This document shows positions 14,659-53,576 of a DNA stretch of 64,000 nt, piece by piece. Source of the DNA: Amphiura filiformis (taxonomy: Eukaryota); contig NC_092633.1 of assembly GCF_039555335.1 (NCBI RefSeq), positions 21,100,334-21,164,333 of the forward strand, read 5' to 3'. Every line of letters starts with the position of its first letter. Positions within the stretch are counted from its first letter, which is position 1. Under the pieces are notes generated by a model. It ran no database searches. It saw nothing but the letters and a program-made list of their open reading frames with translations, and was not told the DNA's origin. Position numbers and translations under genes: made by a program.

Positions 14659-15237
14659 GGGAGGACAGTTTTTATGGTCTACTTAGCTCAGCAATTCTTT
14701 GCGTCTTCGATAGCGCATTGTATCGGAGAGGTACCTGGCTTTTATCAAAGCCCAAAACCATAAAAGCATGTAGCCAACTCTGTCAGGCTCCGCTCAATTG
14801 TCCACCCCGCTCCGATACGACACGTTGACCAAATATCAATCGAATCTATTTTACGACCCTGCTTGAATTAACCCCTTGAAACCTAATTGCACCACTTTTA
14901 ATTTTTATGTATTGGTCAGGCACAAACAAAATTAAACTTACACACATTATTGACTTTCTATTGACCACAAAACACGACCCCAGACATGCTTATTTAATGA
15001 CCACTTGAGTAGTTGATTTAAGTGGGTCGTTATGTACTTACTGAACACAAAGGAAATTGATTATGGTTTTACCATCGACCGTGTTTATAATCCTGCTGCT
15101 CTGCTGAACGCTCCGATAGATATCAGCAAACCCGTATACTATTCGCTTGTTCCTATCGAACGCTCTAGCGTACATGAACCATTATTGAAGACAGCAAAGC
15201 ATTGCTGAGCTAAGTAGACCATAAAAACTGTCCTCCC
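14659..15237. mobile_element. PIF/Harbinger-like MITE (579 bp) inserted into the 49-bp satellite
   Basis: Perfect 37-bp TIR gggaggacagtttttatggtctacttagctcagcaat. It is flanked by TTA at 14656-58 and 15238-40. The satellite unit reads through uninterrupted if the element plus one TTA is removed (tgcaaattgTTAcaactagatg). Confidence 0.7.
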
Positions 15238-15240
15238 TTA

Positions 15241-15790
15241 CAACTAGATGATAAAAATGATACAGTCAGTGTAATTATGCAAAGGTTTACAAGTGATGCT
15301 AAAATAATGTTTTCAGTGTCATTGTTTGAAAGCTTACAAAGTGCGGCTAAAGGGATGCTTTCAGCATTGTTATGCAAAAGCTTACAAATGGGTTAAGTGG
15401 TGCTAAAAGTGATGCTTTCAGTGTCACAGTGCAAAGGCTTACAACGTGGTGCTAAAAATGAAGTTTCAGTGTCATTATTTAAAAGCTTACAAAGTAATGC
15501 TGATGCTAAACGTAATGCTTCCAATGTCATTATGCACATTGTTACAACTAGATGCTAAAAATGATACATTCAGTGTAATTATGCAAAGGTTTACAAAGTG
15601 ATGCTAAAAATGATGTTTTCAGTGGCATTGTTTTAAAGCTAAAAGTAATGCTTCCCGTGTCACTATGCAAACGGTTACAAAGTGATGCTGATCAAATTGA
15701 TGCTGAAAGTGCTACTTTCAGTGCAAAGTGATGCTTAAAGTGATGCTTTTAGTGTCATTGTGTAAAGGCTTACAAAAATTGACACCAAAA
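15241..15790 (+). repeat. 49-bp satellite array (copy 2, part b)
   Basis: The array continues after the MITE. It ends in a truncated copy of the array 3' flank (15790-15895, cttacaaaaattgacaccaaaaatagtcatgtgctgacaggtgccaatg). Confidence 0.85.
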
Positions 15791-15895
15791 ATAGTCATGT
15801 GCTGACAGGTGCCAATGAAACTGTAAGTCCGCTTTTTCACGCCTCGCCGAATATTGCCAAGTTAGACTACTAAGGCGGTATTCTTCCATTTTCAA

Positions 15896-16240
15896 GAACA
15901 AAGGTTACAAAATGATGCTAAAAGTGATGCTTTCAGCGTCATTATGCACAAGATTAAAAATTGATGTTAAAAATGGTGTTTTCTTTGTAATTGTGCAAAG
16001 GCTTATATACTAATTTTCAGTGTCATTATGCAAAAGCATACATATTGATGATAAAAGTGCAACTTTCAGTGTAATTATGCAAAAAGCTGGCAAAGTATTG
16101 CTAAAACTGATGCTTTCAGTGTCATTATGCAAAAGCTTACAAAGTGATGCTAAAAGTGATGCTTTCAGTGTCATTATGCAAAAGCTTACAAAGTGATGTT
16201 AAAAGTGATGTTTTCAGTGTCAATATATAAAGGCTTACAC
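15896..16240 (+). repeat. 49-bp satellite array (copy 2, part c), followed by the complete 3' flank
   Basis: A second array block follows the internal flank copy. This implies an internal array-plus-flank duplication in copy 2. Confidence 0.85.
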
Positions 16241-17726
16241 AAATTGATACCACAAGTCATCATGAGCTGACAGGTGTTAATGAAATAGTAAGCTCGCAAC
16301 CTCATACAAAGATCAAAAGGCAATAATACATGTATGATTGAATATTTTAGTGCAAGCAACCGTTCAAATTTCCTTGTCGTGTCTCGCCGAATATTGCCAT
16401 TAGACTCATATAAGGCGATATTCTTACAGGAGTTCAATTCAACGTTTATTTTCCTTAATGTCTGTAAAATACTTCACCATTTTTTGTGATTAATAACAAG
16501 CAGTACAAATAATACTTCATTTGGAAGCACTGTCTGAATTGACAAGGACAAGGACGAAAATTTAACGTTACGCTGCCTTAATGATTCCCCATACAAGGAT
16601 GCGGTCAGTAGCCCGATATAGTTTTCTTTCTCTTTGACCTTGGAAAACGGCTCAAGCTACATGCGTTATATAAAAAACGATATTAAATAACCGTGATAAT
16701 GTTAATTATAATTTTAAGTATAAACATGTTTAGTGAAAGGGTTACGATTTTACCTTAACGACTCTTTTTAGATTTTTTTTATTTTTATTTTTTATTTGAA
16801 CTGTATACTTCTTGAAGATGTTTTATTTATTTTATATTTTACCGCCTCTTTTCCACGTGTGTGGATTTATTATTTAAGGTTTTTTTAAAAGGGTTTCATT
16901 TTTGCCCAACACAAAATAGCCATTGCGTTATTTTAAATCCACCGGGGCCAATAGTCCATGGTGCTTAACCAATATTTTGAATGGATCAACATCATATAAC
17001 GTTGTGTATACATCATGCTTTCAGCTTCCTACTGCTCCGACGTATGTCTGTATTTTTACAGCAAAGTCTCGGATTAAATTCAGTTAAAAATAACATACCT
17101 ACAATATGCACTTCTCGTGTGTTTTGTTTCGTTATGTTATTTTGTATATTCCTCCATACTCTTGGAGCTACTCAGCCCCAGGAATGCATCTGATCAATAT
17201 TTTAAACCTCATTTGTTAGTATCCACTGAGAAGGCCTCCGGACATGCCTTAAGCATGCAAGCAAACTTACAAGTGGTTTTCAAAGTAACTAATAATACTC
17301 TGTATACAATAAATTATGTAGTTTCTGTTCAAGTTAAAACAAAGTCGACACTCAGACATTCCCCACACATGTCGCTTTTTTAATACGTGCTAACGAAGTA
17401 ATCCCTACAATGAATCAGCTAAGCACTGTATTTTCAAAATCCTAAGTTCTCTAAGGCGGTCATAAGAAAAAATACGTACAAAGGGAGACGCGATCCCAAC
17501 GACGGACGGAGCCTGTCAGTTTTCTTCATATTTTGTCGACATTACTGAAATGAAAATGGTTTAAGAGCATTCCCCTAATTTATCAACCATTTTTAAGCAA
17601 TCGCAATGCAATGATCCGTGCCGGATCTCAGACATTAATATGACCATCCTACTACAACCCTGGACATGTCAACATTTTTGTATAATTTAAACATAACTGT
17701 GAATTACCAACAATAAATAACCTTAA

Positions 17727-18270
17727 GGGATCTGGAATGAGCGTTTTGAGCGTTTCGACAATATTTTTGTGGGACATGAGAGCACATCAGACATATCGAA
17801 TTGCATTCTGAATACGAAGAATGTCTTTCTGATATCAATTTTTTTTTTTTGAAATTCACGATATAAAACAAATTTTATGACAAATTATTAAATTTGATAT
17901 TTTTCACATTTTTGATATACATGTATAACAGTCCTCGAAGTAAATTTTATAAATCTAATGATATATTCTTAAAGTGTATGTAGCTAGGAGGTAAAGCCGA
18001 CGATCAATTGAAAATTTTGACCTTTCATCCCACCTACATACACTTTAAGTATAAATCATCAGATTTATAAAGTTTACTTCGAGTGCTGTTTCAACAAAAA
18101 TATCAATTTTCAATCATTTGCCATAAAATGTGTATTACATTGCGAATTTCAAAAAATCAAAATTATTTGATATCAGAAGGACATTCTTCGTATTCAGAAT
18201 GCAATTCGATATGTCTGATGTGCTCTAATGTCCCACAATAAATACTGTCTAAACGTTCATACCCCACCCC
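17727..18270. mobile_element. TTAA-flanked palindromic MITE (544 bp) with ~70-bp perfect subterminal inverted repeats and GGG...CCC termini
   Basis: TTAA at 17723-26 and 18271-74. 17762-17830 is the reverse complement of 18170-18237. The empty paralogous site at ~7388 (gcttTAAAtggcaccaaat) has a single TTAA. Confidence 0.7.
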
Positions 18271-19023
18271 TTAAGAATGGCACCAAATTTGCAGTTTTGT
18301 ACCATAAAACCTATAGTATATTTATGAGGATATGCTACAATTTGCTAAGGGTTTTTTAAGTGGTAATGTAATTTCAATTCTGAGGAATAAAGCAATACAT
18401 TTCTCCAATTACGCAGTCCTGAATAGGGATTAACAAAAGTCAAGATTCAATTGTGTGCTTTGTATTCACATGAGTATGACAAACCATTAACTCTAGATAT
18501 TCAATTACAAATATTTTACCTTATGATATGGTCGGTTCTTTTATCTTAAATTGTCTTCATCACAAAATTAGGCCTGCCTGCATCGCAATAAGTGAATTAT
18601 TTACTAATCCTTAATCATTATTGGTTTAAGAAACACAGACCAAACACATATAAATCTTATAAGAAAACCCTGAGAAATACAAGAAATATATACTAACTGT
18701 TTTGAATAGTAGATAAGACGAAAATAAACCAAGATTTGAGTTGTCATTGTGTTTCAATGCTCATTTATAAAGTCATAGTTGATAAGTCTGAAGTTGCACC
18801 TGTTCGTTACAAATTCGCGTAGAATTGTGTACAATAAACCCTTTGCTATTGTGCACACATCAAAGAAAAAGGTTCTGTGCAACTTTTTTTTTATCTTTCC
18901 ACAGAGCACACAAGGTGCCCTGTGTATTTATTTATCAAACATGATCTCAGTTATACATAGTTATAAAAGCCACAATTATACAGAATAATAACAATAATAT
19001 TACATTGATGAAAGTAACTGTTA

Positions 19024-19713
19024 TTACATATTTATAGAGTTCCATCTTTTATTCCATTCATACATTTTACCTTTATTGTTTGCAATGTGTTTTTCAGTCT
19101 CGGCGACAGTATTAAGCATACCTTTAAAACCTTGTATGTCCAGCTTATTTTTATTACATCTTGCATTATAAATAAACTTTTTCCCCTGAAGAACAACAAA
19201 ATTATAATGACAATAATCAACATCTAATATGCCCAACAGAACATCCTTCATGGTAAGAGTAACTCTTTTTTTAAAGATATTATCTTGAACCTTCTTCCAA
19301 AATTGAGCAGAAGTACCACATTGCCAAAATAAATGTGGGATATTTTCTAACTCCTGATTACAAAAAGTACAAAGATTTGAATCAACATAACCATATTTAA
19401 ATAGATTTTCATTTATACCTATAATTCTATGCAGAATTTTGAATTGAAAATACCTAAGTTTGGTTGATAGGGAGGAAGACAAGGAAATCCTGTAAATATC
19501 GTTCCAATTTAAATTCATATCATCAAAAAAGACAGCCCATTTGGCCTCGGCTTTGGGCGCAGTTAAACAACTTGTCAACGCAAATTTTGTGAACCAATTT
19601 GCAGACCTTCTTAGAGGAACAGATAAGAGCAAGCATATCATCATGATCATTCTGAACAGTTCCCAAGTCTTCCCCCCTCTCGACACTTCTGATCCATACA
19701 TTTGGAATGGCAT
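19024..19713 (-). pseudogene. L1-like ORF2 C-terminal region with Cys-rich motif and stop codon (copy B)
   Basis: ORF ends 19024. The ~130-bp 3'UTR then runs to the poly(A) at 18892. Confidence 0.7.
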
Positions 19714-21009
19714 AGATTAGAGCAAAATATTCCAGAAAGTTACATTGTAAATTATACTTGGTCTTCAAGATATCAAGGGGAAGAAAACTATCATCTTCAT
19801 TTAAAATATCAGAAATAAATTTAATACCTTTCTCATGCCAGACTTTTTTGTAAACAGTGTTTTGGGCGATAACAATAGATGAATTATTCCATAATATTTG
19901 ATGTCTAAAATGACTTGAAGGAGAATCATAAGTAATTGTACACCAAGCGTTGAGAATTTCACCAATAAACACATTCTTAATAAGCTTAATACATTTCTCC
20001 TCTGGTTTAGTGTTAAAAAAACAAAAAAGATTACCACCAATCTGTTTCATATAAAACATATAAAAACATTTCCATTTACCATTGTTGTTCACATCCAAGA
20101 GACGTTTAACCCAAGCCACTTTAAGCCCATTAATAACTGAGGGAATGTGAACCATCTTGAGGCCCCCTTTCTCATAGTCACCAATGATGGACTTTCTGCT
20201 GAGCTTATCTGGTTTTCCTGACCAAATAAATTTAAATATTATCGAGTCAACCTCCTTCAAAAAATTATCAGGTGGTTTAGGTAAAACAGAAAACAGAAAA
20301 ATTAATTGAGAAAGACCCAAGGATTTAACAATTGTAATTTTACCAATTGGACTTAAATCTCTCATCGACCAAATTCGCAAGATTTCCTTGAGTTTTTTGG
20401 AACGAAATTTAATTCAAAAATATTGCTCAGATCAGAACTAAAAACTACACCCAAAAGACGAACAGGATTGGCAGTAAAATGTAAATCATCATTGTTTAAA
20501 TCAGGAGGATTATCCTTAAACAAACCTAAAGGGAGTAACTCAGATTTATCCAAGTTAATTTTCAAGCCAGAATAAATTTGGAAAGTCTCAAGAATGTGAA
20601 CAACTCTGTGAAGGAGCCAACATCCTTTAAGTAAATAGTGGTATCATCCGCATAAGCACTAATAATAATTTCAGTATTCTCAACCATGATACCTTTAACA
20701 CTATTATCATTTCTGATGGCCAAATTCAAAATCTCACTACTAATTATATAAAGCAGCGGACTAAGTGGACAACCTTGACGAAGTCCACAAAACAATTAAA
20801 AAAATCAGAAGCATGTCCATTGTTCATAACACACGAGGTAATATCTGTATAGAAAACTTTCACCCAATTAATCAAATCATCACCAAAATTAAACAATTTT
20901 AATGCCCTAAACACAAAGGACCATTCAAGTTTGTCGAATGCCTTTTCAAAATCAATTAAAAACATAATACCAACAAAATTATTTTCTGTGCAACCTGATC
21001 ATTGGGTTT

Positions 21010-22714
21010 GAAGTACCACATTGCCAAAATAAATGTGGGATATTTTCTAACTCCTGATTACAAAAAGTACAAAGATTTGAATCAACATAACCATATTTAA
21101 ATAGATTTTCATTTATACCTATAATTCTATGCAGAATTTTGAATTGAAAATACCTAAGTTTGGTTGATAGGGAGGAAGACAAGGGAATCCTGTAAATATC
21201 GTTCCAATTTAAATTCATATCATCAAAAAAGACAGCCCATTTGGCCTCGGCTTTGGGCGTCTTAAACAACTTGTCAACGCAAATTTTGTGAACCAATTTG
21301 CAGACCTTCTTAGAGGAACAGATAAGAGCAAGCATATCATCATGATCATTCTGAACAGTTCCCAAGTCTTCCCCCCTCTCGACACTTCTGATCCATACAT
21401 TTGGAATGGCATAGATTAGAGCAAAATATTCCAGAAAGTTACATTGTAAATTATACTTGGTCTTCAAGATATCAAGGGGAAGAAAACTATCATCTTCATT
21501 TAAAATATCAGAAATAAATTTAATACCTTTCTCATGCCAGACTTTTTTGTAAACAGTGTTTTGGGCGATAACAATAGATGAATTATTCCATAATATTTGA
21601 TGTCTAAAATGACTTGAAGGAGAATCATAAGTAATTGTACACCAAGCGTTGAGAATTTCACCAATAAACACATTCTTAATATTAAAGCTTAATACATTTC
21701 TCCTCTGGTTTAGGGTTACATTCCCAAAAAAGATTACCACCAATCTGTTTCATATAAAACATATAAAAACATTTCCATTTACCATTGTTGTTCACATCCA
21801 AGAGACGTTTAACCCAAGCCACTTTAAGCCCATTAATAACTGAGGGAATGTGAACCATCTTGAGGCCCCCTTTCTCATAGTCACCAATGATGGACTTTCT
21901 GCTGAGCTTATCTGGTTTTCCTGACCAAATAAATTTAAATATTATCGAGTCAACCTCCTTCAAAAAATTATCAGGTGGTTTAGGTAAAACAGAAAACAGA
22001 AAAATTAATTGAGAAAGACCCAAGGATTTAACAATTGTAATTTTACCAATTGGACTTAAATCTCTCATCGACCAAATTCGCAAGATTTCCTTGAGTTTTT
22101 TGGAACGAAATTTAATTCAAAAATATTGCTCAGATCAGAACTAAAAACTACACCCAAAAGACGAACAGGATTGGCAGTAAAATGTAAATCATCATTGTTT
22201 AAATCAGGAGGATTATCCTTAAACAAACCTAAAGGGAGTAACTCAGATTTATCCAAGTTAATTTTCAAGCCAGAATAAATTTGGAAAGTCTCAAGAATGT
22301 GAACAACTCTGTGAAGGGAGCCAACATCCTTTAAGTAAATAGTGGTATCATCCGCATAAGCACTAATAATAATTTCAGTATTCTCAACCATGATACCTTT
22401 AACACTATTATCATTTCTGATGGCCAAATTCAAAATCTCACTACTAATTATATAAAGCAGCGGACTAAGTGGACAACCTTGACGAAGTCCACAAAACAAT
22501 TTTAAAAAATCAGAAGCATGTCCATTGTTCATAACACACGAGGTAATATCTGTATAGAAAACTTTCACCCAATTAATCAAATCATCACCAAAATTAAACA
22601 ATTTTAATGCCCTAAACACAAAGGACCATTCAAGTTTGTCGAATGCCTTTTCAAAATCAATTAAAAACATAATACCAACAAAATTATTTTCTGTGCAACC
22701 TGACCATTGGGTTT
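21010..22714 (-). repeat. Tandem duplicate of 19309-21009 (LINE 5' part plus TSD plus 15 bp of upstream flank)
   Basis: The junction at 20983-21011 reads ttctgtgcaacctgatcattgggttt|gaagtaccac. That is the TSD plus flank joined to internal LINE sequence (= 19309), with a 2-bp 'ga' microhomology. The two units are near-identical. Confidence 0.7.
22065..22670 (-). pseudogene. L1-like ORF2 reverse-transcriptase fragment (copy A)
   Basis: 201-aa ORF with FIDFEKAFD, RQGCPLSPLLY and YADDTTIY. The equivalent region in copy B (20362-20965) is broken into three frames by homopolymer indels. Confidence 0.8.
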
Positions 22715-22759
22715 GACGTGGACTTCATTCCAAATGCTCCAAGCTGGAGTAAAATAATA

Positions 22760-23220
22760 TATCGCCGTGGATAAGACAATGCAGACATAAACATGGTTTA
22801 TGTTCAAGATCAACAGGTTAACATCAACATAAATAATGCTACAAACTAAAAGCTAGATAAGTTGAAAGACTTCAAATATTATGGAGCAATGGATGGATAG
22901 TACAGATCATGATGTCAAACATATAAGACAGCAGCTTGGCGAGCATGAAACAACTTAAGCAAGATCTGGAAGTCTGCTTGACCTACCAAAGAAAACCTGC
23001 GTGTCTTCAGTACAACAGTGGCGTCTGTGTTAATGGATGTTAAGCCAGGACCACGAATCCAAAACTATCCAAGATCTGGATGCCTCTTACTATGAATGCC
23101 TAGAAATAACAATAACATGATAACGTACACGGGAAACAGCACATAAGTAGCAAAGAGCTGCACGGAGACCTTCCAAACCTCTCTGAAGATCCGAGCAAGA
23201 ACTACACTAGAACTGGCTAG
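22760..23220 (+). pseudogene. Decayed 3' end of a CR1/L2-type LINE ORF2 (older element into which the L1 and a MITE inserted)
   Basis: Homologous to 29513-29900, with stops and frameshifts. The LINE-tail homology continues at 23886-24100, after the MITE 23222-23885. Confidence 0.5.
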
Positions 23221-23221
23221 T

Positions 23222-23885
23222 CCGTACTTTAAATAAGTTGTATTTTGGGTTTTGGTTTAGGTAAAAACGTTTTAATAACATTAAAATGTCGGGTTATTAT
23301 AAAGGTCATGAAATCGTTTTAACACGTTTTGTATGAAAACACACTACAACAATATTTTTAAAATGTTTTTGAAATGTCATTGTAAACTATTTTTGCAAAC
23401 AATTTTAGCCAAATATTTTGTCAACACTTGAATAACATTATGTTAAAATATGTGCACCCAGCAAACACAGAAATGTTCTTAAAATGTTTTTTACAAAACG
23501 TTTTAATAACATTTAAATGTCGGGTTAAAGGTCGTGAAAACATTTTAAAAACGTTATTGTAAATATGTTGGGCAAACATTTTTTGCAAAATATTTTTCAA
23601 CCCCAAAATAACATTCTGTTTAGAATGATTTGTACCAAGTTTTCAAAAATGTTTTTGGAATGTTATTAAAACGTTTTTATACCCTTTATATAACCCGACA
23701 TTTAAATGTTTTCTGTAAAACATTTTTGTTTGCTGTGCAGTAAATTACCAACAAATGTTATTTAATGTTATGAAAATGTTTTATACCATTAATGTAGCCT
23801 TTATATAACCCGACATTTAAACGTTTTCTGACAACCTTTTGCGAATGATGTCGAAAACGTTTTGTGTTTGCTGGGTTCCAGCCGG
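23222..23885. mobile_element. MITE with internal palindromes, lacking its 5' TIR, inserted in a LINE tail
   Basis: Homologous to 62560-63360. The 3' TIR aaaacgttttgtgtttgctggg ends at 23885. Internal inverted repeats of the type ataacccgacattt / aaatgtcgggttat. Confidence 0.6.
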
Positions 23886-24109
23886 TACTGGTCACGACAC
23901 TGGGTACATGGCTAGAACTACACGTTTTGCTGTACACTGCTTCAGGAGTAAGAGCGAAGATGTCGACAAATGTAACTGATCAACTGGACACCCAGGCATG
24001 GAGGCAGAAATCCTGGTAGACCATTGTGGACCGCCTAATAACTATGTATATGAGTTCAGCATTCAATCATTCGTTATACGGCCAATTTCTGCTGACAATA
24101 ATTTGTTAA

Positions 24110-24660
24110 GTTACACCATTTTCTCATGCTAGGCGTAAATTAATTTAACACGTTCTTGTATAAATAATGTTTCAACGAATTTTTTTTATTGTCGGTAACA
24201 TTGGGTGACATTTCCGCCGCTGTATTACAGATCAAGTTTCATTTAATGACGACTAAAAACCAAATAACCTGTGATCCTATTCTTTCATGTTCAAGTAGTA
24301 AAAGGCGCTTTGATATTTTGATAGGTTACACCTCAGGCTTGAATTAAGCACTTTTGAAGAAAAACCGCTACTCTGTTTCAATTAGGTACTATATTTATAC
24401 ATATTGGGGTGTTCAAAAACTTCTTACATAACACTTATGTCACATTGACCTCATCGTTATCGTCTCATCAAGTACCAAGTGAGTGTATGGGTGTATTGAG
24501 TTTAAATGTTTTCGACGGACAAGATGGTCAATATTCAGATACATAAAGAGAGAGTTTAGCTTATATGTCAATAATTACGTACATGTTATACTTTACTACA
24601 CCTTGCTTTTTTGCCAATACCATTTAGTGTGTATGAGATGATAAGAACACTTTTATGTAA
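24110..24660 (+). repeat. About 570-bp dispersed repeat (copy 2 of 3)
   Basis: See 8590-9160. Confidence 0.6.
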
Positions 24661-24889
24661 GAGATTGGAATTAGATTAAATTTCATCTATTTTATCAACA
24701 ATATTTTCTTTGAATAATTTCCTTCAAACATTCATTTGGTACTTAAATCTTAAGTAGCCTCAATTTTGGTTAAACCAAAGACAGTAGCTCGTATATGAGA
24801 TGAAATATTTACCGTAAATATTTCAGGAAAACAATAAACTATTAAATAAAATTCGATTCGAATTATTTGTCACGGTGTACTGTGTGGAG

Positions 24890-25620
24890 ACTCTTCAGAA
24901 GAGTCGGACTAACAAGAAAAGATATGGTGTTCTCAATTGCTCGTATTCAGGCCAGTTAATAATATGGTGAATCCAGGGATTTACTAATTCGCCATATCTC
25001 GGTTTAATACAGATCATCTAACTTGTTAAATTCCAAATCGGTGGTGTGTTTTTAATGTTACTGATGCATATCACCGCTAATACCGGCCTTAATATTGTAG
25101 TTAAGAAAAAAAGAGTCCCTACATGACAGCGATCGATATCAATGCAAAATTGCATATTTTAAGAATAAAAAAACAAACTTAAATATATAAGCAACCTCTT
25201 TCCCGCTCCTTAGGTCTTCTAACATTTCCCGCAGTAAAATGTCACAATGCTTATAACATGAATTTTGCCAGAATGAAAATGCACCTAAAATAAACACAAA
25301 ATAGACTCTTGACGATAAAAGCAAACTGTGTGAAATTTGAAACATAATTACTCTGGGCTAATATCAATTTCAATCTATCTGGACATGCAGCTACGTCCAT
25401 GTCAATGTCTCGTGTAGATGACTGAATATCGTGTGGGCAGTACATAAGTTTCATTTGCTTAGTGCTGCATCGATCTAACGTTTCGTTTATGGTGTTACAA
25501 ACTGGCGTGGTTTAGTTGTGTGACTCGGCATTTGTCGCAATAAACCATGATAACAAGCATGTGCTATTGGCTTCTGGCTATGTCATCATGTCCTAGTTAC
25601 AAATAACCCATTATACAGGT
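24890..25620 (+). repeat. About 1.2-kb repeat family copy, 3' truncated at the copy2/copy3 junction
   Basis: See 9860-11020. Confidence 0.6.
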
Positions 25621-26050: not shown

Positions 26051-26235
26051 TACCACAAATTTCAACAAATTCAACAAATGAAATAGAACATATATTTTTA
26101 CAATGTTCTCAATTTCAGTAAAATATCTTCAAGTTTAGAATAAATCTAGCAATCTAGTAAATTTTCTAAATGGCCTGCCAAAAAAATCGCTTCTCCCCTT
26201 GGTCCGCACAGCCCCTAATAAAAATACTGTTTTCC

Positions 26236-26310
26236 GTGTATTTATTATGCAAAAGCTTATAAAGTGATGCCACTTTCAGTGTAATTATGCCAATGTTTAA
26301 AGTGAACATG
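26236..26310 (+). repeat. Relic of the 49-bp satellite, about 1.5 units (copy 3)
   Basis: gtatttattatgcaaaagcttataaagtgatgccactttcagtgtaattatgccaatg, flanked by the usual array-flank homologs (26310-26560 vs 3225-3430). Confidence 0.6.
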
Positions 26311-28055
26311 TGCTGACAGGTGTTAGTAAAAATCACAACCCTTTCACCAAAAGCTGACAGTAACGTATCTAAAAAAACATAAACATTACAAACAATGCTT
26401 CATTTGGTAGCACTGTCTGCAATGACAAGGACTTTTGACATCAATTTAACGTTACGTTGCCTTAATGATTTCTCATCCGCGTATTATGGTTCTCTTTCAC
26501 TTTGACCTTGGGGAAAAAAGCTTAAACTACATGCGCTATATGAAAACCCTTTAATAATCATGATAGTGGTAATATGATTTTAAATAGCATCTTTAGTGAA
26601 ATTAAGGTGAGATGGAGTTGGTTGCCCAGCACTTGCATGTGGCGCCCAGCACTTGCCTGTTACAGTACAATGCAGTTAAGGTAGTGCCCCGTCAGGCAAC
26701 AGTCAACCACACGGTCAGAAAAAAGACGGGAACCGCCACAAACCAGATCACAGCTGTTTGCAAGAAATTTTGCACCGCGTATGTGGAAGTTCACTTTTCA
26801 AACGGCTACTTTACTTAAACAAAATTGCGACAAGAACTGTCACCCTTGCGAGGGAAAATACAGCTTCGTTAGCCATGTCACTGGGTCGTCAAGAAACAAA
26901 AATATTGAACTAACACCACAGCTGTGGTACATCACAATATAAAAGCAATGGAAAGAAAAATGCAAATGTTCGTCATTTTTCAGCACATATAATATTGGCA
27001 AAATTTTGCATATAGCCACCATTTCTTCAGCTAACTCGTCTATATCCAAGGGGTGCCCGTCATCTAGTTATTATCTATATCTATGTTATAGTACGGAACT
27101 GAAGATTGTGAAAGTGCCAGGTTTTGGCTATAAATTTACATTCCGAATCAAATTGATTATATATTTGTAATGTTTTTATTTAAAATGACTCTTGTGCCGA
27201 GAATAATCATTTTGATACGCAACGTCAGGCTTTTTGAATCTCAATCTCGCTTTAAAGGAAGTTATGTAAGGCTATCAGTTTCTGTTCACTTCAAAACTTA
27301 TTCGCTGTTTAAAGGGGACATTCAGACATTCCACAGATTACGTTTTTATTCCACTTTTAATACGCACTTATGTAAACCTAATATGAATTACTAACCCCTA
27401 TAATGAATAAGCTAGACACTGCGCTTTCATGTCAAGAAAGGCAATCTAAAATTGTATTGGCAGTCATAAGAAATTACGTGTAAATCAATTGGAATGCGAC
27501 GTGATCTTTCAGTTTTATTCATATTTTGTCGACAACTTCAGAACATTTTACAAATATATCTTTTTATATTTTGGGTCCTAGCTGGATCATGTGACCCATC
27601 CTACAACCCGTAACATGTAACGATTGGACTTTTTGTTTGATATTCAAACATAACTGCAAATCACAAATATTATATATATAAGCTTTAAAATATCACCAAA
27701 TATATGTAATTTTTTGCAGATATGCTACCGTGACAATTTGCCAAAAGTTCTTTATGTGTTCTAATGTAAGAGCAATTTGAGGAATAAACCAATATTTTTC
27801 TACAGTTACTCATTCCTGAACAGGGATTAACAAAAGTCAAGATTTAATTGTGCGCTTAGTATTACACAAGTATGACTCTAGAAATTGAAATGAAACTATT
27901 TGATCTTTTCAATGTATCATCTTTATATTATATTGGCCTTCATCACACTTTAAAGTGGGAACTCGGAGTTCTAGGTAAGAAATAAGTGAGTTATAACCGA
28001 ATCCTTAATTTGGAAATATAGAATGCAAGTAACTATCTCAAATAGTACAAATATG

Positions 28056-28640
28056 TGACCGTCCACGGCGAATGAGCCGTAAATTCCTCCCCGGTCAATT
28101 TTGTTTTATTTCGTGTTTAAAAATAAACATCATAAACTTAAAAATGGTATATCATTTGACTTCAAACGATATCCAGAAGCGGGGTTATGGTTTGATAAAC
28201 TTTGCTCCTTCAACAAAATTATAGCTTTTACGTTTTTACAAGTGTCTCTTTTTCCACATTGCTGGCAATAAATATCAAACAGTCATAATTGGCGGTCATT
28301 TCAAATCATCCCCAAGTCAACGAGGTTTAAGAAGGTTCTCTCATTGTTAATTGTTGGTTATGCATACCTATACAAAATACAATGCCTGGTAACCCACCAC
28401 TTGAAAAGGATTTAGCAAAAGCAAACAAAGACCAGAGCTATTAAAAGTTCTATAGCCATCTAAGGGAGAAGCTTATTATCCACTTCAATAATAGGATTAT
28501 TGATTGGTGTTGTGACTATCGAAATAAGACAGATGTCGCGCCAGCATAAGTGACCGATGAATACGACCTTCGTACACATTTTACACCATAACTCAGAATA
28601 CAATTTAGGGAATTTACGGCTCGTTTGTGCTGCCGGGTCA
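28056..28640. mobile_element. TIR element (~585 bp) private to macro-repeat copy 3, with an apparent 5-bp TSD (ATATG)
   Basis: Ends tgaccgtccacggcgaatgagccgtaaattcc and ggaatttacggctcgtttgtgctgccgggtca form an imperfect ~32-bp TIR. ATATG at 28051-55 and 28642-46. Paralogous empty sites ~7790 and ~18710 read ...caaatatgacgaaaaatg... Confidence 0.45.
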
Positions 28641-29512
28641 CATATGAAGAAAGCAAGAACATTTCAGTTGATGTCATTGTGTTTTGACGCTCATTCATAA
28701 AGTCATAGTTGATAAGGCGGAAGTTGCACCTGTTCGTTGCAAATTCCGCGTAGAATTGTGTACAATAAACCCTTTGTTATTATACACATATCAAAGAAGT
28801 GAATTCTTTACAACCTGACCATTGCTTTTGACGAGGACTTCATTCGAAATGCTCCAGGCTGGAGAAAAATAATATATCGCTGTATTAATGCAGACATGTT
28901 GTAGAATAAGGAATATGGTAAAATCTCTAGTACGATCATTTTCCACAAAGGTATAAGAAAAGGACAGGGGGCAAGAAAGGTGGTCAAAGGACACGTAGAC
29001 GATACATGAAAAATACAAAAAGATACAAGCAGGAAAGTATTTCTGACACGGATTCAGAAATATAGACGAATATATCTGGCTATGTTTATTATGTAATAGT
29101 CAATGAAATGGTAGTGGCAATGCAGAACGGTGAATATTGTAATGGCGTTTCCCTTTAATCTGTATTAAAGAGGGTTATCCCATTATTTAAAAAGTGGTAA
29201 TTTCCAGATATTTTGAAAACCTGACACTGTACAGGATATTTGATAGTCATAAATATCATAATAACTATTAATTTCGCTCGTAGTGGAATGTGTCATGTAC
29301 TGGAAAAACATCATTCGCCGTTTACCATGTTAACAACCATGTTATCAATCCCTCCCTAAACATGCTAAATAATGTGTATCCAAACATTGATGATTTGCGT
29401 TAAATAGAAATATCCTTAAATGATTTCCATATTATATTTATTTATTGACCAATTTGGTTTTGCCGTAGGATAGGATATGTCATTTTGGGTGTAATAACCT
29501 TAATCTGTTTTA

Positions 29513-30010
29513 TTGGTCATGTTGGTGAAAGACTTCAAATATCTTGGAGTATGGATGGCTAGCACAGCGCATGATGTCATAACACATAAGGTGGTAGCTT
29601 GGAGAGCATGTTACAACCTATGCAAGATCTGGAAGGCTGCTCAACCATCAAAAGAAAAACTGCGGGTCTCCAGTGCAACAATTAAATCTGTGTTAGAATA
29701 TGGGTGTGAAGCCTGGCCCATGACTCATAAATTATCTGAAGAGCTGGATGGCTCATACACCCGAAAGCTTAGGACGGATAGTGTACAATAACCACTGGAA
29801 ACAGCACATAAGTAACAAAGAATTACGGAGACCTTCCAAGACTCTCAGAAAAAGATCAGAGAAAGAAGGACACACTTCGTTGGATACTGCTTCAGGAGTA
29901 AAGATGAAAATCTCGTCAATTGGAGGCACATGGAGCCAGAAACCCTGGGGACTGCGATGCAGGACAGGATAATATGGAGAACTATCGTGGTTCGGGAAAA
30001 CCACTCGAAA
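29513..30010 (+). pseudogene. Decayed CR1/L2-type LINE ORF2 C-terminal region
   Basis: The 92-aa ORF MVMLVKDFKYLGVWMAS...KIWKAAQPSKEKLRVSSATIKSVLEYGCEAWPMT follows the conserved post-RT pattern FKYLG...W.S..L....K.R.....V.S.LLYG.E.W. It is followed by a ...NW..ME.E....DR..WR..V-type tail. Confidence 0.55.
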
Positions 30011-30109
30011 TAAGCAAGTAAGCAAGTTATTGCTAAGTGACTCTTCAAAATTGAAGTCAAAATAACAAATTGACTAGAGATTAGTTCTCAATCAATTTGT
30101 TATACAGAT

Positions 30110-30640
30110 ATTTTCTGCTGGTGATAATGGCATGTTGTCGTAAATTATTTTAGCACATTATTGTAAAAAAAATATGTTTCCACGATTGTTTTATTGATGT
30201 TACAATAGATAACATTTCCTCCCCTGTATTCCAGATCGAGTTTCTTTTAATAATGACTAGAAACCAGTGACCTCTTGAGCTTATTCTTCCGAGTTTAAGT
30301 AATGGAAGAGGCTTTGATGTTTTAATAGCTTACACCTTTGGCTTGAATCAATCACTTTTGAAAACAAACGCTACTCTGTTTCAATTTGGTACTATATTTA
30401 TACATATCAAGGTGTTAAAACCCTTCTTAAATAACACTTATGTCACATTGACCTTATCGTTATAGTCTCATCAAGTACTAAGTGAGTGCATGGGTGTATT
30501 GAGTTTAAATGTTTTCGGCGGACAAGATGATCAGTATTCAGAGTTTAGTTTATATGTCGATAATTACGTACATGTTATACTTAACAAAACCTTGCTTTCT
30601 TCTGTAAAATACCAGTTATCATGATTTCCACACCTTAGGG
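30110..30640 (+). repeat. About 570-bp dispersed repeat (copy 3 of 3)
   Basis: See 8590-9160. Confidence 0.6.
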
Positions 30641-30873
30641 TGTCTGAGGTATCTCAATACAAATACTACCGAATCATTTTCTGAACACGAGTTACAAAAT
30701 ATGATACGCCTATATATGCGTTACTTATTCAGTTGTTCATTGGACTGTCGTTCTTCAATGGAATCTGTCTAGCAAGTTTGGAACGGGTGTTACTAAAACG
30801 AAGACAGGAGACCGAAGACGTTTAGCGAAGGTCTGCAATTCTCTATTTTAAGCCCACGGTTGAATAAAACATA

Positions 30874-31466
30874 CGAGGGGTATCAAAAAGTTTTAGAAAT
30901 CGCACAGAAGTGAAAGAGCTATATCAATGAAATTTTGTCAGTGCAATCACTGGTCCTTATGTACACTATGGTGCAAAAATGGTCTCATAAGTATGTTTAC
31001 TTTTTTTACAGGAGCTAGATGTCACTACCTGCCTATGTAACCGCATAACCAGCAAAATGGAGAAAATTGAGCCATGCAGCATGATTAAGTTCCATTTTAA
31101 GGGTTACAGTGCCCAGAAAATCTGTGATGAAATAAAAATTCCTTTTCCAAAAAGTGACAGTGACATATCACAATCACCACCGAAGATAACTTTCATTTCA
31201 TCATCAATTTTCTAGGCACAGCAACCCTTCAAAAGCTGGATCTTAATAATGCTGCTTGCCTCAATTTTCTCAATCTTGCAGTTTATGCGCAGTAATTGGG
31301 GCAGCGGGTTATTGGCATCTAGTGCCACCTGTAAAAAAAGCAAACATACCTATGAGACCATTTTTGGACCATAATGTACATAAGAACCAGTGATTGCACT
31401 GACAAAATTTCATTAATATAGCTCTTTCACTTCTGTGCGATTTCTAAAACTTTTGATACCCCCTCG
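30874..31466. mobile_element. TA-flanked MITE (593 bp) with ~125-bp TIRs, likely Tc1/mariner-mobilised
   Basis: 30874-30990 is the reverse complement of 31340-31466 (cgaggggtatcaaaaagttttagaaatcgcacagaagtgaaagagctatat...). TA dinucleotides at 30872-73 and 31467-68. Confidence 0.7.
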
Positions 31467-33272
31467 TACGCACCCTATGTTGTTTTAAAAATAATAGTAT
31501 CCAAATTTATTTGGTATCTTTTACTTCATGAATATATAGACTTCTGAATTCTTATGATTAGAGAAGTAGACTAAGTTTGGTGTGATTTCAACATTTTTGA
31601 ATATTATTTGACCCCTGTATACACTTCGATGACCTACTCCCGTCATCATGCAAAGAAATTTTCGCTCTTAAACCAAATTTGTTAGCCATGTCAAATGCTT
31701 CATCTGTCAATTTCTGTGTTTTTCCGGTAAAATGAACACTGCTTTCAACATTCTGCAGGTATAAAAATGGTAATATTGGCTAAAGGTTTCAAGTAAACTA
31801 CACTAAGTTCAATTTGCTAAACAAGTTGGTTGACACATTAATGGTTGGATATGGATCTCTTACACAAAATTAACCAAGTAGAGACAAACCTCTTCAGAAG
31901 CAACGGGCCTACCAGAAAAGACGTGATGTTCTCAATTACTTCGCTATATGAAGAGCTTTGTTTTAAAAACCCTTGCATCCACTTTTGGCTGAAATTGAGT
32001 TATTGACATGACATATAGTGTGGGTAAAAATACACATTTTGTGTCATACCACTTTCCCTTCCGGAGATATGGTATATTTCCCGTTTGGGAAATCTTAGGG
32101 AATTTCCGGAAATCTGAACATAAAATGAATATAAAATTGTTTTGTTTTAATTTTTTGATGTATACTAGTAGCATGGAATGTTCTTTACCTATTAAAACCA
32201 AAGGGAATTGTTTTTGGGTCACTATTTTTGAAAAAATCATTTTAATCAACAAAAGGTGTAGCTTCGGAAATACTCAAAAAAGTAAATAAAAAAGTAAATG
32301 AGATATTTCAATTTTTCTTTTTGATTTTGAAAGCATTAGTCAAGTTACATAAAGTAGTGCAAACAAATGGGCTCAAATATGATTGCAAAGGTGGTTTCTA
32401 GAAAAGGGGTAAATTTGTTTTGTTGCAAAAGCCCTTACATCCACAAAAGGCGCGATATAAAAGATATAATAAAATAAATAGGAAGGCTTCAAAATTGTAC
32501 CAAACCTATTCTTTTAGTTTCTATTCATCAACACTTTATCCAAACCCAAATTGAATCAAATCGAACCAGTAATATTTGCACAATTTAAAAAAGCTGTTTT
32601 TCTCAAAAAGTCAAAAGTGGATGTAAGGGGTTTTGCAACAAAGCTCTTCATATATCGGTTTAATGCAGCAATGACGCCCAGATCATCTAGTTTGTTAACT
32701 TCAAAAACGTTAACTTCAAATTTTCTAGACATATCAAGCGCTTCATCTGAGCCCATTTCTATGCTTTTTCGGCAACAGAACACTGCTTTCACCATTCTGC
32801 AGCACCAATCGTGCAAGCTAAAATAAGGAAACTAATGTTATAGATTATGTAATTTGCAGTATCAAACTTCATCCAGTTTATCAACAATATTTTCTTTGGA
32901 TAATTTCATTCAAACATTTATTCGATATAAATTTTATAGATTTTGAGCAGTTACAATTTTGGTTAACCAAATTGATAAGCTAATATACTCGTATGAGATG
33001 AAATATTATTGTAAATATTTCAAGAAAACATAAACAATAAACTATTCATTAAATTGTAAACGTCATTCAGAGCAGGATATGGTAATCTATCGGAGATAAC
33101 GAGTTTTATATCATAATACTAAAAAGTAAGACTTTTCGTGTATAAAGCACCAACATCGTCTGCCACTCGAGGAAAATAGCAAGTTCTTGAATATTTAGAA
33201 TGTTATATTTAAATAAGCAATTCAATTTAATGATATAAATCAATTACTGGCGATGCATGCATGTGACTTTTT

Positions 33273-33470
33273 TAGTGACGTTTCACCACTACACTAGTTG
33301 TTTCATCAGACTTGCAACTCATCACATCTAAGTGCTTCCTTTTCTTAACAACATCTTTGACCAACTCATAACGCCCTCAACGGTTCCTGTTGCCTATAAA
33401 AGGAAGCAGTCAGATGTGATGAGTTGCCAGTCTGAAGAAACCACTAGTGTAGTGGTGAGACGTCACTAAA
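33273..33470. repeat. Hairpin element with ~70-bp stem and ~60-bp loop
   Basis: tttagtgacgtttcaccactacactagttgtttcatcagacttgcaactcatcacatctaagtgcttcc is the reverse complement of 33400-33470. It is absent from the paralogous repeat copy at ~34450-34500. Confidence 0.6.
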
Positions 33471-34824
33471 AATTTAAGTAGTTCAACATAATTTTTCACT
33501 TGAATTGTTCAAAACGAACCATATTTACAGATGTGGCTGACATTTTTGTACAAAATTACAGCTAATTTCAATCGTTGTTCACAAACTACTTTATGATTCC
33601 ATTGATCATCTGCTGGCCAATCAAATACGCTGAAACTATTACATCAGGTCACGTTTTTATTTTCTCTGAACTCAATAAACTCAATACCTAAAGCACTTGC
33701 ATAAACGGCTATTAATCTGTCATTTACGCCACTCAAACTCTTTTAGATTGGGAACCAATTTAGGTCATTGGCTAATTTCAAGTAAACTACATTAAGATCA
33801 ATTTTCTAAACAAGTTAGTTGACACACTAATCTATAGTTGACACTCAGAATAATTGGATATGGATCTCTTACACCGAATTATTAGTCAAATTCTGTGTCA
33901 CAGTGTACTGAGTAAAGACAAGCCTCTTCAGAAGCGTCGGACCTACCAGAAACAACATGGTGTTCTCAATAACACTTGTTTAGACTGGTTTATATTGTTA
34001 AGTCATAGATTTATTAATTCGCCATATCTCGGTCACTAGTCGTGCAAGCTAAAATAAGGTAACTAATGTTAGAGATTGTGGAATTATATTTGCATTATTA
34101 AATTTCATCCATTTTATCAACAATATTTTCTTTGGATAATTTCATTCAAACATTTATTCGATATAATTTTTACAGATTTTGAGCAGTTTCAATTTTGGTT
34201 AACCAAACACATATTGATAAGCTTTTATATGAGATGAAATATTTACCGTAAATATTATCAGGAAAACAAAAGCAATAAACTATTCATTAAATTCGTAAAC
34301 GTCGTTAAGAGCAGGATGCGGTAAACTATCGGATATAACGACTTTTAGATTATAATACTCAAACGTAAGTCTTCTCATGTTTAAAGCACCAATATCGTCT
34401 GCCATTTGAGAAAAAAATCAAATTCTTGAATATTTAGAATGTTATATTTAAATAAGCAGGTCAATAATATAACTCAATTACTTTTTGTACAAGATTACAG
34501 CTTCGTCTATTGCTTGGTAAAAATGACAATTTTTATTTTATCCAAGAGATATAGATTTCTTCAATCGACGTTCGCCAGCTACTTTATGTTTCCATTAACC
34601 ATCTGCTAGCCAATAAAATACGATTAAACCATTGTAAACTATTACATCAGGTCAAACACTTGCGTAAACGCCTAATAATCTGTCATTTGCGCCACTGAGA
34701 CTCTATTAAATGGGGAACAAATTCAGGTCATCAATATTGGCTTAAAGTTTCAAGTAAACTACACTAAGATCAATTTTGTAAACAAGTTAGTTCACACATT
34801 AATATATGGTTGACACTCAACACT

Positions 34825-35074
34825 CTAAGAAATAAAGGTTCTTAAAAGGTTCTAAAGTTGTCCTCTAAGGCGAACCCGTAGCGGTTCTCTAAAGAACCAA
34901 AAATGGTTCTAAAAACCATAGAAAATGGTCCCAAAAAGTAATACAGGGCCGTTTTCGGTTCTTTTAAGAACCTTCAAGGGTTTTCCATAATTAAAGAACT
35001 TTTTTAGAGGTTCCAGATGGAGGATTCTCGTGAGAGGACAAAAAAAGGTTCTATTTGGAACTTTTATTTCTTAG
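34825..35074. mobile_element. MITE (~250 bp) built from ggttct/agaacc sub-repeats with a 17-bp imperfect TIR
   Basis: ctaagaaataaaggttc at 34825-41 against ggaacttttatttcttag at 35057-74. The empty paralogous site is at ~33845 (gttgacactcagaataattgg). The same sub-repeats fill the foldback element 4191-6001, and a partial copy lies at 59020-59110. Confidence 0.5.
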
Positions 35075-35119
35075 AATGAAGATAATTGCATCTTTTGCAC
35101 CGAATTAACCGAATTCTAT

Positions 35120-53135: not shown

Positions 53136-53369
53136 TTTCTGCAGATCTGGTCATCTGGTGGTAGTAGAACAAATAAACGAACAGATACAGTAAGTTTGCT
53201 TTTAAAGTGATATCACATTAACATGATTAAGAACTCTGTAACCCACCTTTGCACCGTATTTTTAGTGGGACCGTAGAGCATATCACACACATATATCCTT
53301 TTGATATCAAATAATATTTGAAATTCGCCTAATAATACAAAATGTATGGAAAATTAAACTTTATAAACC

Positions 53370-53560: not shown

Positions 53561-53576
53561 TGAGGACTGAAAAATG

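Follow-up and report, generated by a model that had tools for sequence, protein, structure and literature searches.

A 5′-truncated L1-like retrotransposon insertion with a probable later tandem duplication in the brittle star Amphiura filiformis

The closest described systems are L1 and its relatives. Human L1 ORF2p (PDB 8SXT/8UW3/8C8J) carries an APE endonuclease, a reverse transcriptase (RT) and a C-terminal CCHC motif, the same plan as in the brittle-star family described here, and the likeness extends over about 870 collinear residues. Insertions of the L1 clade and of this family also have in common a short poly(A) tail, a target-site duplication (TSD) of variable length, 5′ truncation with microhomology at the junction and insertion that is not site-specific. 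The Tx1 group (Xenopus Tx1L and others) stands close to L1 and shares this domain plan; its targets are typically sequence-specific, and invertebrate L1-like elements are often labelled 'L1-Tx1' in RepeatMasker style. Rearrangements coupled to L1 integration, namely twin priming, 5′ inversions and chimeric insertions, involve RT switching over short microhomologies, and L1 chimeras and twin priming show that LINE RTs can switch templates. A further comparison is offered by microhomology tandem duplications, ascribed to NHEJ or alt-EJ between sister chromatids or to FoSTeS/MMBIR. The duplication reported here resembles them in being head-to-tail, kilobase-scale and filler-free, with 2 bp of junction identity and breakpoints in unrelated sequence; its sole special feature is a transposable-element boundary inside the unit, which time-stamps the event.

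The window analyzed is a 64-kb stretch (64,000 nucleotides) of A. filiformis contig NC_092633.1. It contains a 2,100-bp, 5′-truncated non-LTR retrotransposon on the minus strand, originally corresponding to 18884-20983 (Table 1). The 11-bp repeat TTCTGTGCAAC brackets the insertion exactly at both element ends and occurs exactly three times on the + strand of the window, whereas about 0.015 occurrences per strand would be expected by chance for a given 11-mer. The position of the poly(A) tail beside the 3′-side TSD is fixed by four outgroup family copies. At the other end, GAA (22689-91), the last three nucleotides of the 5′-side TSD in element sense, also matches the LINE, and outgroup homology extends to 20986/22691 in 4/4 copies; judged from the sequence, GAA is 5′-junction microhomology and the true TSD measures 8–11 bp. 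The retained part of ORF2, which is 98% identical to P0001, comprises the RT from motif A, the thumb/wrist and the CCHC domain, and the 3′ UTR is about 98% identical to family copies L001-L004. The Pfam RVT_1 match begins at profile position 71/205, six residues before motif A. The truncation reported in the initial annotation is thereby confirmed, with the correction that it lies about 72 residues into the RT and not at the start of that domain.

Table 1. Positions of the insertion, the duplicated units and neighboring features within the window
Feature	Position	Strand	Remarks
TSD, element 3′ side	18873..18883	.	exact TTCTGTGCAAC (+ strand), directly after poly(A)
Poly(A) tail, A9	18884..18892	-	T9 on + strand
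3′ UTR, 131 nt	18893..19023	-	between stop codon 19024-26 and poly(A)
ORF2 remnant, original insertion	19024..20983	-	C-terminal ~653 codons, frameshifted
Duplication unit A	19310..21009	-	LINE 5′ part + TSD + 15 bp flank
CCHC motif CTFCNQELENIPHLFWQC (CX2CX8HX4C), unit A	19318..19371	-	twin at 21018-71, unit B
RT motif C (SAYADDTT), unit A	20637..20660	-	twin at 22341-64, unit B
Internal TSD copy	20984..20994	.	11-mer carried along by duplication
15-bp upstream-flank copy CTGATCATTGGGTTT	20995..21009	.	ends at duplication junction
GA microhomology	21010..21011	.	also at 19310-11 and 22715-16
Duplication unit B	21010..22714	-	LINE 5′ part + TSD + 15 bp flank
TSD, element 5′ side	22689..22699	.	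11-mer TTCTGTGCAAC
Older decayed non-LTR remnant	22793..23211	+	RT motif E, thumb, C-terminus; continues 23914-24023
Paralogous unoccupied target site TTCTTTACAAC	28804..28814	.	flank homologues contiguous, single target copy

Four independent copies of the family, 98% identical to the LINE, end at the same 3′ base, with CTGTGGAAAGAT followed by A6-A10 and then by unrelated flanks. The 3′ flanks of all five copies examined, a small sample, were unrelated to one another, indicating no site specificity, unlike the typical targeting of the Tx1 group. The environmental and metagenomic outgroup copies differ from one another by just 0.1–0.4%, which suggests very recent activity of the LINE family in an ophiuroid. 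One metagenomic copy adjoins another fragment from the same family. Within the window, both flanks of the insertion have contiguous homologues at a paralogous unoccupied site, the left flank (18731-18867) matching 28658-28798 at 88% and the right flank (22689-22788) matching 28804-28897 at 84%. Together with the repeat at both element ends, this single copy of the target bears out the 11-bp TSD proposed earlier, while the short 3′ UTR ending in A9 is confirmed by the terminus common to the four other copies. An insertion by target-primed reverse transcription (TPRT), likewise proposed, is supported by the poly(A) tail, TSD and 5′ truncation, by the four copies with the same terminus and by the empty-site paralogue.

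To place the element, its frame-corrected translation was searched against Pfam, yielding RVT_1 (E=5.6e-23, profile 71-204) and zf-RVT (E=6e-9). In a PDB search, the window consensus matched human L1 ORF2p at E=2e-37 versus 1e-9 for R2, a comparison confined to these two clades, as the PDB RTs comprise L1 and R2 only. The full-length relative P0300 aligned collinearly with human L1 ORF2p (375 bits, residues 3-873 versus 6-878); the non-L1 LINE control P0155 reached 101 bits, in the RT core only. Full-length relatives display the APE + RT + CCHC architecture: P0300, P0302 and P0306 match Exo_endo_phos at E~1e-11, and P0300 matches L1 EN structures at E=9e-23. The endonuclease is absent from the truncated window copy. 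Family contigs extend upstream of the truncation point into the C-terminal half of APE and the RT N-terminus; contig L002, from the LINE's own family, encodes the C-terminal half of APE (GDFN ... DHS) and aligns with P0300 residues 139-649 at 65% identity. The family is seen from within ORF2 onward, the window copy being 5′-truncated and the metagenomic contigs ending inside ORF2.

The domain architecture, the collinear ORF2p match and the TPRT hallmarks support the earlier designation as an L1-type LINE, and we classify the element as putatively L1-like (L1/Tx1 group), leaving L1 proper and Tx1 undivided. In contrast to mammalian L1, this is an echinoderm family, distantly related in sequence. 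The cysteine spacing is CX2CX8HX4C in the brittle-star LINE and CX3CX7HX4C in human L1, and the nick at the window LINE, GCAAC/CTGAC, differs from the T-rich TTTT/AA type of mammalian L1.

A repeat search and pairwise alignment defined the tandem duplication of the LINE 5′ part. Units A (1700 bp) and B (1705 bp) are arranged head-to-tail with no spacer and are 98.9% identical, in agreement with the identity above 98% that had been expected. Tandem Repeats Finder did not report the duplication, its period limit of 500 bp being shorter than the unit. The repeat recognized in the initial annotation is real, with 19310 instead of 19309 as the first base of its first unit, and that annotation's description of the unit as LINE 5′ part, TSD and 15 bp of flank was correct, as was that of a junction sharing 'ga', which recurs at both outer breakpoints. 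The flank copy in unit A has one mismatch to 22700-14, and the paralogue identifies the C of unit B at this site as the ancestral state. The junction reads GGGTTT followed directly by GAAGTACC, and the breakpoint lies 8 nt downstream of the unit A CCHC motif in element sense. By our own calculation, about 16% of random joins would have at least 2 bp of microhomology, so that the 2-bp GA cannot identify the repair pathway.

The two units differ by 10 substitutions, five of them within one 6-bp cluster, and at five indel sites, only two of which fall in homopolymer or low-complexity runs; the claim that they differ by just a few homopolymer indels therefore does not hold. Polarization by the four outgroup copies, and by the paralogue in the flank, assigned private derived changes to unit A at 20796-99, 20615, 20016-21, 19560-62, 19485 and 20999, including three frameshifts (20796-99, 20615, 19560-62). 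Private to unit B are a single frameshift, caused by 4 bp inserted outside any homopolymer at 21682-85, and a substitution at 21714. The longest RT ORF (22065-22670, 201 aa, motifs A-E) is found in unit B, which reverses the earlier statement that indels break the RT ORF in this copy: unit A is the more broken, and unit B keeps the RT core open. Common to both units and missing from the four outgroup copies are 12 substitutions and a frameshifting 7-bp deletion. These shared and private changes point to a common ancestor of the units that was distinct from other copies, followed by divergence.

The divergence between A and B amounts to 0.36–0.60% versus 0.72% for the shared-derived changes, and these sequence distances support a duplication that is young relative to the insertion, consistent with the recent event originally proposed. 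The shared-derived changes could, however, come from the source element, in which case the time gap between insertion and duplication would be shorter. The source assembly has a QV of 31.6, from which about 2.3 base errors are expected over both units. Not every A/B difference need be a mutation: some, chiefly the 1-bp changes within runs, may be errors.

We consider it likely that the locus arose through an L1-type insertion by TPRT and a later non-homologous head-to-tail duplication of 1,700 bp. The boundaries, TSD, poly(A) tail, empty site, family membership, and the duplication with its content are shown, and the order and mechanism of the events are what we infer from them. A young L1-type non-LTR retrotransposon would have integrated on the minus strand via target-primed reverse transcription, the + strand being nicked at GCAAC/CTGAC and the 3′-OH serving as primer for cDNA made from the poly(A) RNA. 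Copying or joining would have halted immediately ahead of RT motif A, at about codon 588 of ORF2, the 5′ end would have been joined through the 3-nt microhomology GAA, and staggered second-strand cleavage would have produced the TSD of 8–11 bp. Lacking ORF1, the endonuclease and the opening third of its RT, the LINE copy was dead on arrival. Subsequently, a non-homologous event, either a template switch in replication or the end-joining of sister chromatids out of register, would have duplicated 1,700 bp head-to-tail with only GA (2 bp) in common at the junction. The duplicated segment would have consisted of the 5′ 1,674 bp of the LINE, the TSD and 15 bp of flank, after which units A and B would have decayed independently.

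Because the unit includes the TSD and flank, the duplication occurred after completion of the 5′ junction or, at the earliest, with it. The content of the unit thus agrees with the view that the duplication followed integration; the claim that it could 'only' have done so was too strong, template switching during integration being conceivable. Homologous unequal crossing-over was rejected, as breakpoints 19310 and 21010 share only GA. Twin priming was also rejected, as it yields inversions, and so was endonuclease-independent insertion, given that the element has a TSD and a poly(A) tail.

Insertion followed by duplication also presupposes a correct assembly, which is likewise our inference. 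An animal with a single unit, falsely expanded by Flye/Racon through, for example, a heterozygous bubble or a chimeric read, seems unlikely. The source, a purged diploid assembly, was built with Flye from R9.4.1 Nanopore reads; heterozygosity in this genome is 3.2%, and the structural QV given by Inspector is only 26.9. For the cluster at 20016-21 (five substitutions, GGAATGT -> TTTTTTT beside a T-run) a consensus error seems likelier than mutation. Both points would suit an artefact. Against it, the window has no N or gaps, and the junction joins non-homologous sequence with 2 bp of identity, a kind of join for which overlap-based assemblers need supporting reads. Nanopore coverage is reported as about 100x, in reads that far exceed the 3.8 kb of the structure. 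Units A and B can be told apart at about 9 sites, and each has derived states of its own, unlike a stutter copy. Tandem units that are 99% identical are usually collapsed by assemblers, not expanded, and an expansion would run opposite to this tendency. A false tandem joining of two haplotypes was rejected, the divergence being 5-fold below the reported heterozygosity of 3.2% and no gap being present. Five ORFs of the window, including a 254-aa ORF spanning the junction, had no exact matches in a collection of 15 billion proteins. JGI metagenome contigs contained no exact match to 26-mers representing the duplication junction or the hypothetical empty allele, a result that is uninformative.

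That the duplication was made during integration, with RT switching templates between the truncated RNA and target DNA, is very unlikely. RT would have to pass from the RNA 5′ end to the target DNA (GAA), copy the TSD and 15 nt of flank, return to an internal RNA position (GA), reach the RNA 5′ end again and rejoin the target. Both units do stop at one and the same LINE nucleotide and share its 3-nt microhomology, short microhomologies would serve both switches, and the source RNA could already have carried the 7-bp deletion and all 12 shared-derived substitutions. The identical unit ends, however, are trivially explained by an ordinary tandem duplication, and three successive template switches are needed, including 26 nt of DNA-templated copying and then a return to RNA, a sequence of steps that to our knowledge has not been described. 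Where L1 integration is known to rearrange the insert, the usual outcome is an inversion or a deletion and not a direct duplication with target DNA; such inversions, deletions and chimeras differ from the present case in that none has a direct repeat holding TSD and flank. An origin of the direct duplication in retrotransposition itself, through repeated RT switching between 5′-truncated RNA and target DNA, is accordingly rated as highly improbable; if true, it would add to the integration-coupled rearrangements a class not described before, in which target DNA is copied mid-insert.

Two separate LINE copies, produced by independent insertions or by unequal homologous exchange between neighbors, can be practically dismissed: the family is multi-copy and young, with outgroups 0.1–0.4% apart and one copy abutting a same-family fragment, but unit B lacks a 3′ terminus and a poly(A) tail of its own, the breakpoints share 2 bp only, which excludes homologous exchange, and the truncation point, TSD, 15-bp flank, 12 substitutions and 7-bp deletion are common to both units, such that the common TSD, flank and private mutations effectively refute two independent insertions.

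Next to the insertion lies an older decayed LINE, whose ORF runs rightwards on the + strand from 22793 to about 24023 and is interrupted by an unrelated repeat insertion of about 650 bp. Pfam detected only DUF6451 in this fragment, below threshold (E=0.19, 0.024), and a word-indexed search with the stop-riddled fragment found no homologues; its relatives were recovered by an exhaustive HMMER search with a cleaner paralogous ORF. Matches by tblastn included P0126 (E=3e-22) as well as P0155 and P0129 (E=1e-6 to 1e-7), and the family has the architecture Exo_endo_phos (APE) + RVT_1 + DUF6451. The single ORF of about 900-1000 aa with APE and RT in these relatives resembles the RTE clade (BovB, RTE-1), a comparison in which the remnant itself covers just ~180 codons. 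The family motifs, DLDFADDIALLS ... FKYLG ... IWKS ... YGCE.W ... HISN.EL ... GH ... GRP ... DR..W, presumably match the BovB/RTE C-terminal pattern. In a paralogue, a short 8-bp direct repeat (x2) follows almost directly after the ORF stop, which fits RTE or CR1/L2. The CR1/L2-style thumb LQRVQNTAARL is present in an intact LINE at 37-40 kb and absent from the remnant.

Taken on these motifs and relatives, the remnant looks RTE-like rather than CR1/L2. The insertion point (22700) lies upstream of its RT motif D/E and outside the 3′ tail, so that insertion into a CR1/L2-type LINE tail, as first suggested, is not upheld. Significant homology to the old LINE begins 95 bp from the insertion point, and no significant similarity to it was found spanning that point or left of 18873. 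Neither Rfam families nor tRNAs were detected in the window.

For annotation, frameshifts in Nanopore-derived sequence such as this should not be over-read, and repeat annotators may split the locus into two LINE fragments and an apparently orphan flank. Both processes are routine, and the locus represents ordinary genome wear with little import beyond annotation. Its empty-site paralogue makes it a tidy textbook case. On the history we favor, it would be a clean, internally time-stamped case of TPRT with 5′-junction microhomology and then a small tandem duplication by a non-homologous route.

The 64-kb window contains three plus-strand copies of TTCTGTGCAAC and no more (18873-18883, 20984-20994 and 22689-22699), and the first copy is directly followed by T9, i.e., A9 in the sense of the element. 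The 11-bp target-site duplication (TSD) and poly(A) bracket of the initial annotation were found at its positions. Four other copies of this young LINE family, located on metagenomic contigs (L001-L004), all end in CTGTGGAAAGAT, then A6-A10 and unrelated DNA, which sets the element's 3' end at 18893 and its tail at 18884-18892. All four are homologous to the window as far as 20986/22691, 3 nt (GAA, element sense) inside the 11-bp repeat; a microhomology of 3 nt thus marks the 5' junction, and the actual TSD is 8-11 bp long. A paralogue in the same window matches the left flank (18731-18867 with 28658-28798, 88% identity) and the right flank (22689-22788 with 28804-28897, 84% identity); its flanks are collinear with those of the insertion and contiguous, with TTCTTTACAAC present between them only once. 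This unoccupied site independently confirms both boundaries and the TSD. Paralogy between 16100-25600 and 26200-35900, in collinear blocks of 70-88% identity, reaches well past the neighbouring old LINE on both sides, which suggests that ~10 kb was segmentally duplicated in tandem long ago. Only the first segment copy contains the young element, leaving an empty site at 28804-28814 in the second. The best-conserved blocks surround the insertion point (84-88%).

The frame-corrected minus-strand translation (653 codons) matched Pfam RVT_1 (E=5.6e-23, profile positions 71-204 of 205) and zf-RVT (E=6e-9) and contains the CCHC motif CTFCNQELENIPHLFWQC. A database search with the element retrieved a 599-aa protein at 98% identity and its cluster mates, encoded on the four marine metagenome contigs (two labelled SOLA), which are independent insertions of the family. 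The five family copies lie in five unrelated flanks, so the family is not site-specific. Upstream sequence in L002 encodes the C-terminal half of the APE endonuclease and the RT N-terminus; its alignment to residues 139-649 of P0300, a full-length relative of 1,242 aa (65% identity), places the start of the window copy at about ORF2 residue 588. Together with the RVT_1 profile, this puts the truncation inside the RT domain, ~72 residues in and six residues before motif A, rather than at the domain's start as initially annotated. P0300 and two further full-length relatives (P0302, P0306) carry Exo_endo_phos, RVT_1 and zf-RVT domains. P0300 aligned with human L1 ORF2p in one collinear stretch (residues 3-873 vs 6-878, E=8e-111, 375 bits); its match to the L1 endonuclease by itself had E=9e-23. 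R2 proteins reached 107 bits, and the internal control P0155, full-length and related to the locus's other LINE, scored only 101 bits against L1, confined to the RT core. The proposed L1-type name is borne out in the broad sense, by protein similarity, that spans L1 proper and the Tx1 group.

The near-identical copies indicate that metazoan (probably ophiuroid) DNA is present in 'microbial' coastal assemblies, where it was gene-called as if prokaryotic. In L003, an inverted same-family fragment (2591-2726, matching window 19085-19220 in reverse) directly follows the poly(A), reflecting either self-nesting or chimeric assembly.

The segment 19310-21009 (unit A, 1,700 bp) recurs head-to-tail, without spacer, as 21010-22714 (unit B, 1,705 bp) at 98.9% identity; the repeat and its anticipated identity of >98% stand, and only the start, previously set at 19309, shifts. 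The junction reads CTGATCATTGGGTTT/GAAGTACC. The GA reported as common to the junction ends was seen at the starts of both units and directly after unit B, leaving the breakpoint ambiguous by 2 bp. Since at least 2 bp of microhomology would arise in ~16% of random joins by our calculation, end-joining and replicative template switching are indistinguishable here. Tandem Repeats Finder did not report the array, solely owing to its 500-bp period limit.

Most likely, insertion by TPRT and 5' joining preceded the duplication: TPRT would have been primed at the plus-strand nick GCAAC/CTGAC and would have ended prematurely, 5' joining through microhomology would have produced the 8-11-bp TSD, and a later non-homologous tandem duplication would have copied 1.7 kb. 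The earlier view that the duplication arose only after integration is sound as to the later duplication but slightly too strong in its 'only', as three template switches in the course of integration would yield identical sequence; being unprecedented and unparsimonious, that route is improbable. The window is very probably part of the published brittle-star assembly, built from ~100x Nanopore R9.4.1 reads with Flye in diploid mode, Racon polishing and purge_dups (QV 31.6, 6.8e-4 errors per base; Inspector structural QV 26.9; heterozygosity 3.22%; PMC11310086). An assembly artefact as the source of the later duplication is opposed by Nanopore reads far longer than 3.8 kb, zero Ns in the window, a junction uniting non-homologous DNA with identity over only 2 bp, and unit divergence five-fold below haplotype divergence. 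Homologous unequal exchange is ruled out, since the breakpoints have only GA in common. Exact look-ups of five window ORFs in the protein collection gave no match, nor did exact junction scans of JGI metagenome contigs, the latter an uninformative result.

The four outgroup copies served to polarise the differences between the units. Common to both are 12 derived substitutions, an altered T/A run and a frameshifting 7-bp deletion (AAAACTT, about 20399/22102). Of the private frameshifts, three fall in unit A and one in unit B, and the longest RT reading frame (22065-22670, 201 aa, spanning motifs A-E) lies in unit B; the claim that a few homopolymer indels break the RT ORF of copy B erred in both kind and direction. 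At QV 31.6, the two units together should contain about 2.3 base errors, so 1-bp run changes, and perhaps the T-cluster of unit A, may be consensus errors. This cluster sits directly after a TTTTTTG run and could reflect either templated slippage or an error in the Nanopore/Racon consensus. Between RT motifs A and B lies a hypervariable T/A run; in its T8A3 state, ORF2 of metagenomic copies that otherwise look intact is broken into two overlapping ORFs. From comparison with the in-frame relative P0002, we infer T7A3 as the functional state.

With the neutral rate given in PMC11310086 (1.885e-9 per bp per year), the substitution divergence between units (0.36% if the cluster counts once, 0.60% raw) translates into about 1-1.6 Myr, an age that gene conversion between units would make too young and assembly errors too old. 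The shared derived divergence of 0.72% gives an earlier history of no more than about 3.8 Myr, an upper bound because shared changes were possibly inherited from the source element. Outgroup copies differ by 0.12-0.37%, indicating very recent activity of the family.

Directly right of the insertion lies an old non-LTR remnant on the plus strand. Its paralogous ORF (29513-29791) has 1,671 relatives, 285 at E<=1e-10; the long ones (~900-1000 aa, one from Mnemiopsis leidyi) carry Exo_endo_phos, RVT_1 and DUF6451. In the window copy, significant old-LINE similarity is limited to 22793-23211 and 23914-24023, so this similarity sets in near RT motif D/E, 95 bp to the right of where the element inserted; left of 18873, no significant old-LINE similarity was found. 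Insertion into an older CR1/L2-type LINE tail is thus unsupported as stated, and nested retrotransposition is, at the very point of insertion, no more than plausible. The closest relative of the remnant has the motifs DLDFADDIALLS ... FKYLG ... IWKS ... YGCEAW ... HISNKEL ... GRP, which we take, as a lead only, to resemble RTE/BovB rather than CR1/L2.

Several further repeats were observed in the window. An AT-rich repeat of ~650 bp, probably non-autonomous, whether MITE-like or of another type, interrupts the old remnant and is absent from the paralogue. A second type of LINE, almost intact and CR1/L2-like in appearance, has a 462-aa RT ORF (GVPQGS ... YADD ... LQRVQNTAARLVT) overlapped by its APE ORF by 25 nt in a different frame; LQRVQNTAARLVT is presumably a CR1/L2-style thumb, and ORF2 appears split by one frameshift.

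Coordinates of sequence features, unit-specific changes and metagenomic copies (window positions unless a contig is named)
Feature	Position	Strand	Observation
RT motif A	20933-20962	-	FLIDFEKAFD
Unit A private	20796-20799		T7A2, -1 frame
Unit A private	20615		-1 in C-run
Unit A private (T-cluster)	20016-20021		five substitutions, GGAATGT to TTTTTTT
Unit A private	19560-19562		complex +1 change
Unit A private	19485		
Unit A private	20999		in copied flank; paralogue agrees with unit B
Unit B private	21682-21685		4-bp insertion
Unit B private	21714		one substitution
T/A run	20796-20799 / 22500-22504; L001 ~1425; L002 ~1539		unit A T7A2; unit B T6A4; L001 and L002 T8A3; L003 11-bp deletion
L001-L004	ENA ERZ1764467, ERZ1764478, ERZ23498373, ERZ23498428		coastal marine metagenome assemblies; two labelled SOLA22-1
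AT-rich repeat	23228-23875		many internal direct and inverted repeats (AAAACGTTTTAATAACATT ... AAATGTCGGGTTA)
AT-rich repeat, second copy	62593-63357		near window end; 87-90% identity
RTE-like host family, further decayed remnant	57951-58237	-	tblastn with P0126, a relative of the old remnant: 36% identity, E=7e-11
Different LINE	37046-40131	-	GC-rich island, 44% vs ~34% background
Its APE ORF	38410-40131		573 aa, Exo_endo_phos; verbatim A. filiformis XP_072033073.1
MITE-like foldback	17764-18241		nested long inverted repeats, 83-nt arms 93% and 68-nt arms 85% complementary; ~650 bp left of insertion
Foldback, related copies	53352-53907, 56236-56454		
Degenerate minisatellite	15237-16239		~49-bp unit, higher-order periods 105 and 152 bp, 66-84% matching, two blocks
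Minisatellite fragments	26219-26601		in paralogous segment

Together, the main structure originally proposed holds, and three subsidiary claims needed correction. The locus holds a dead L1-like insertion that later underwent a small tandem duplication, within an echinoderm genome rich in repeats; the finding has good support and is real, but it is an ordinary one.
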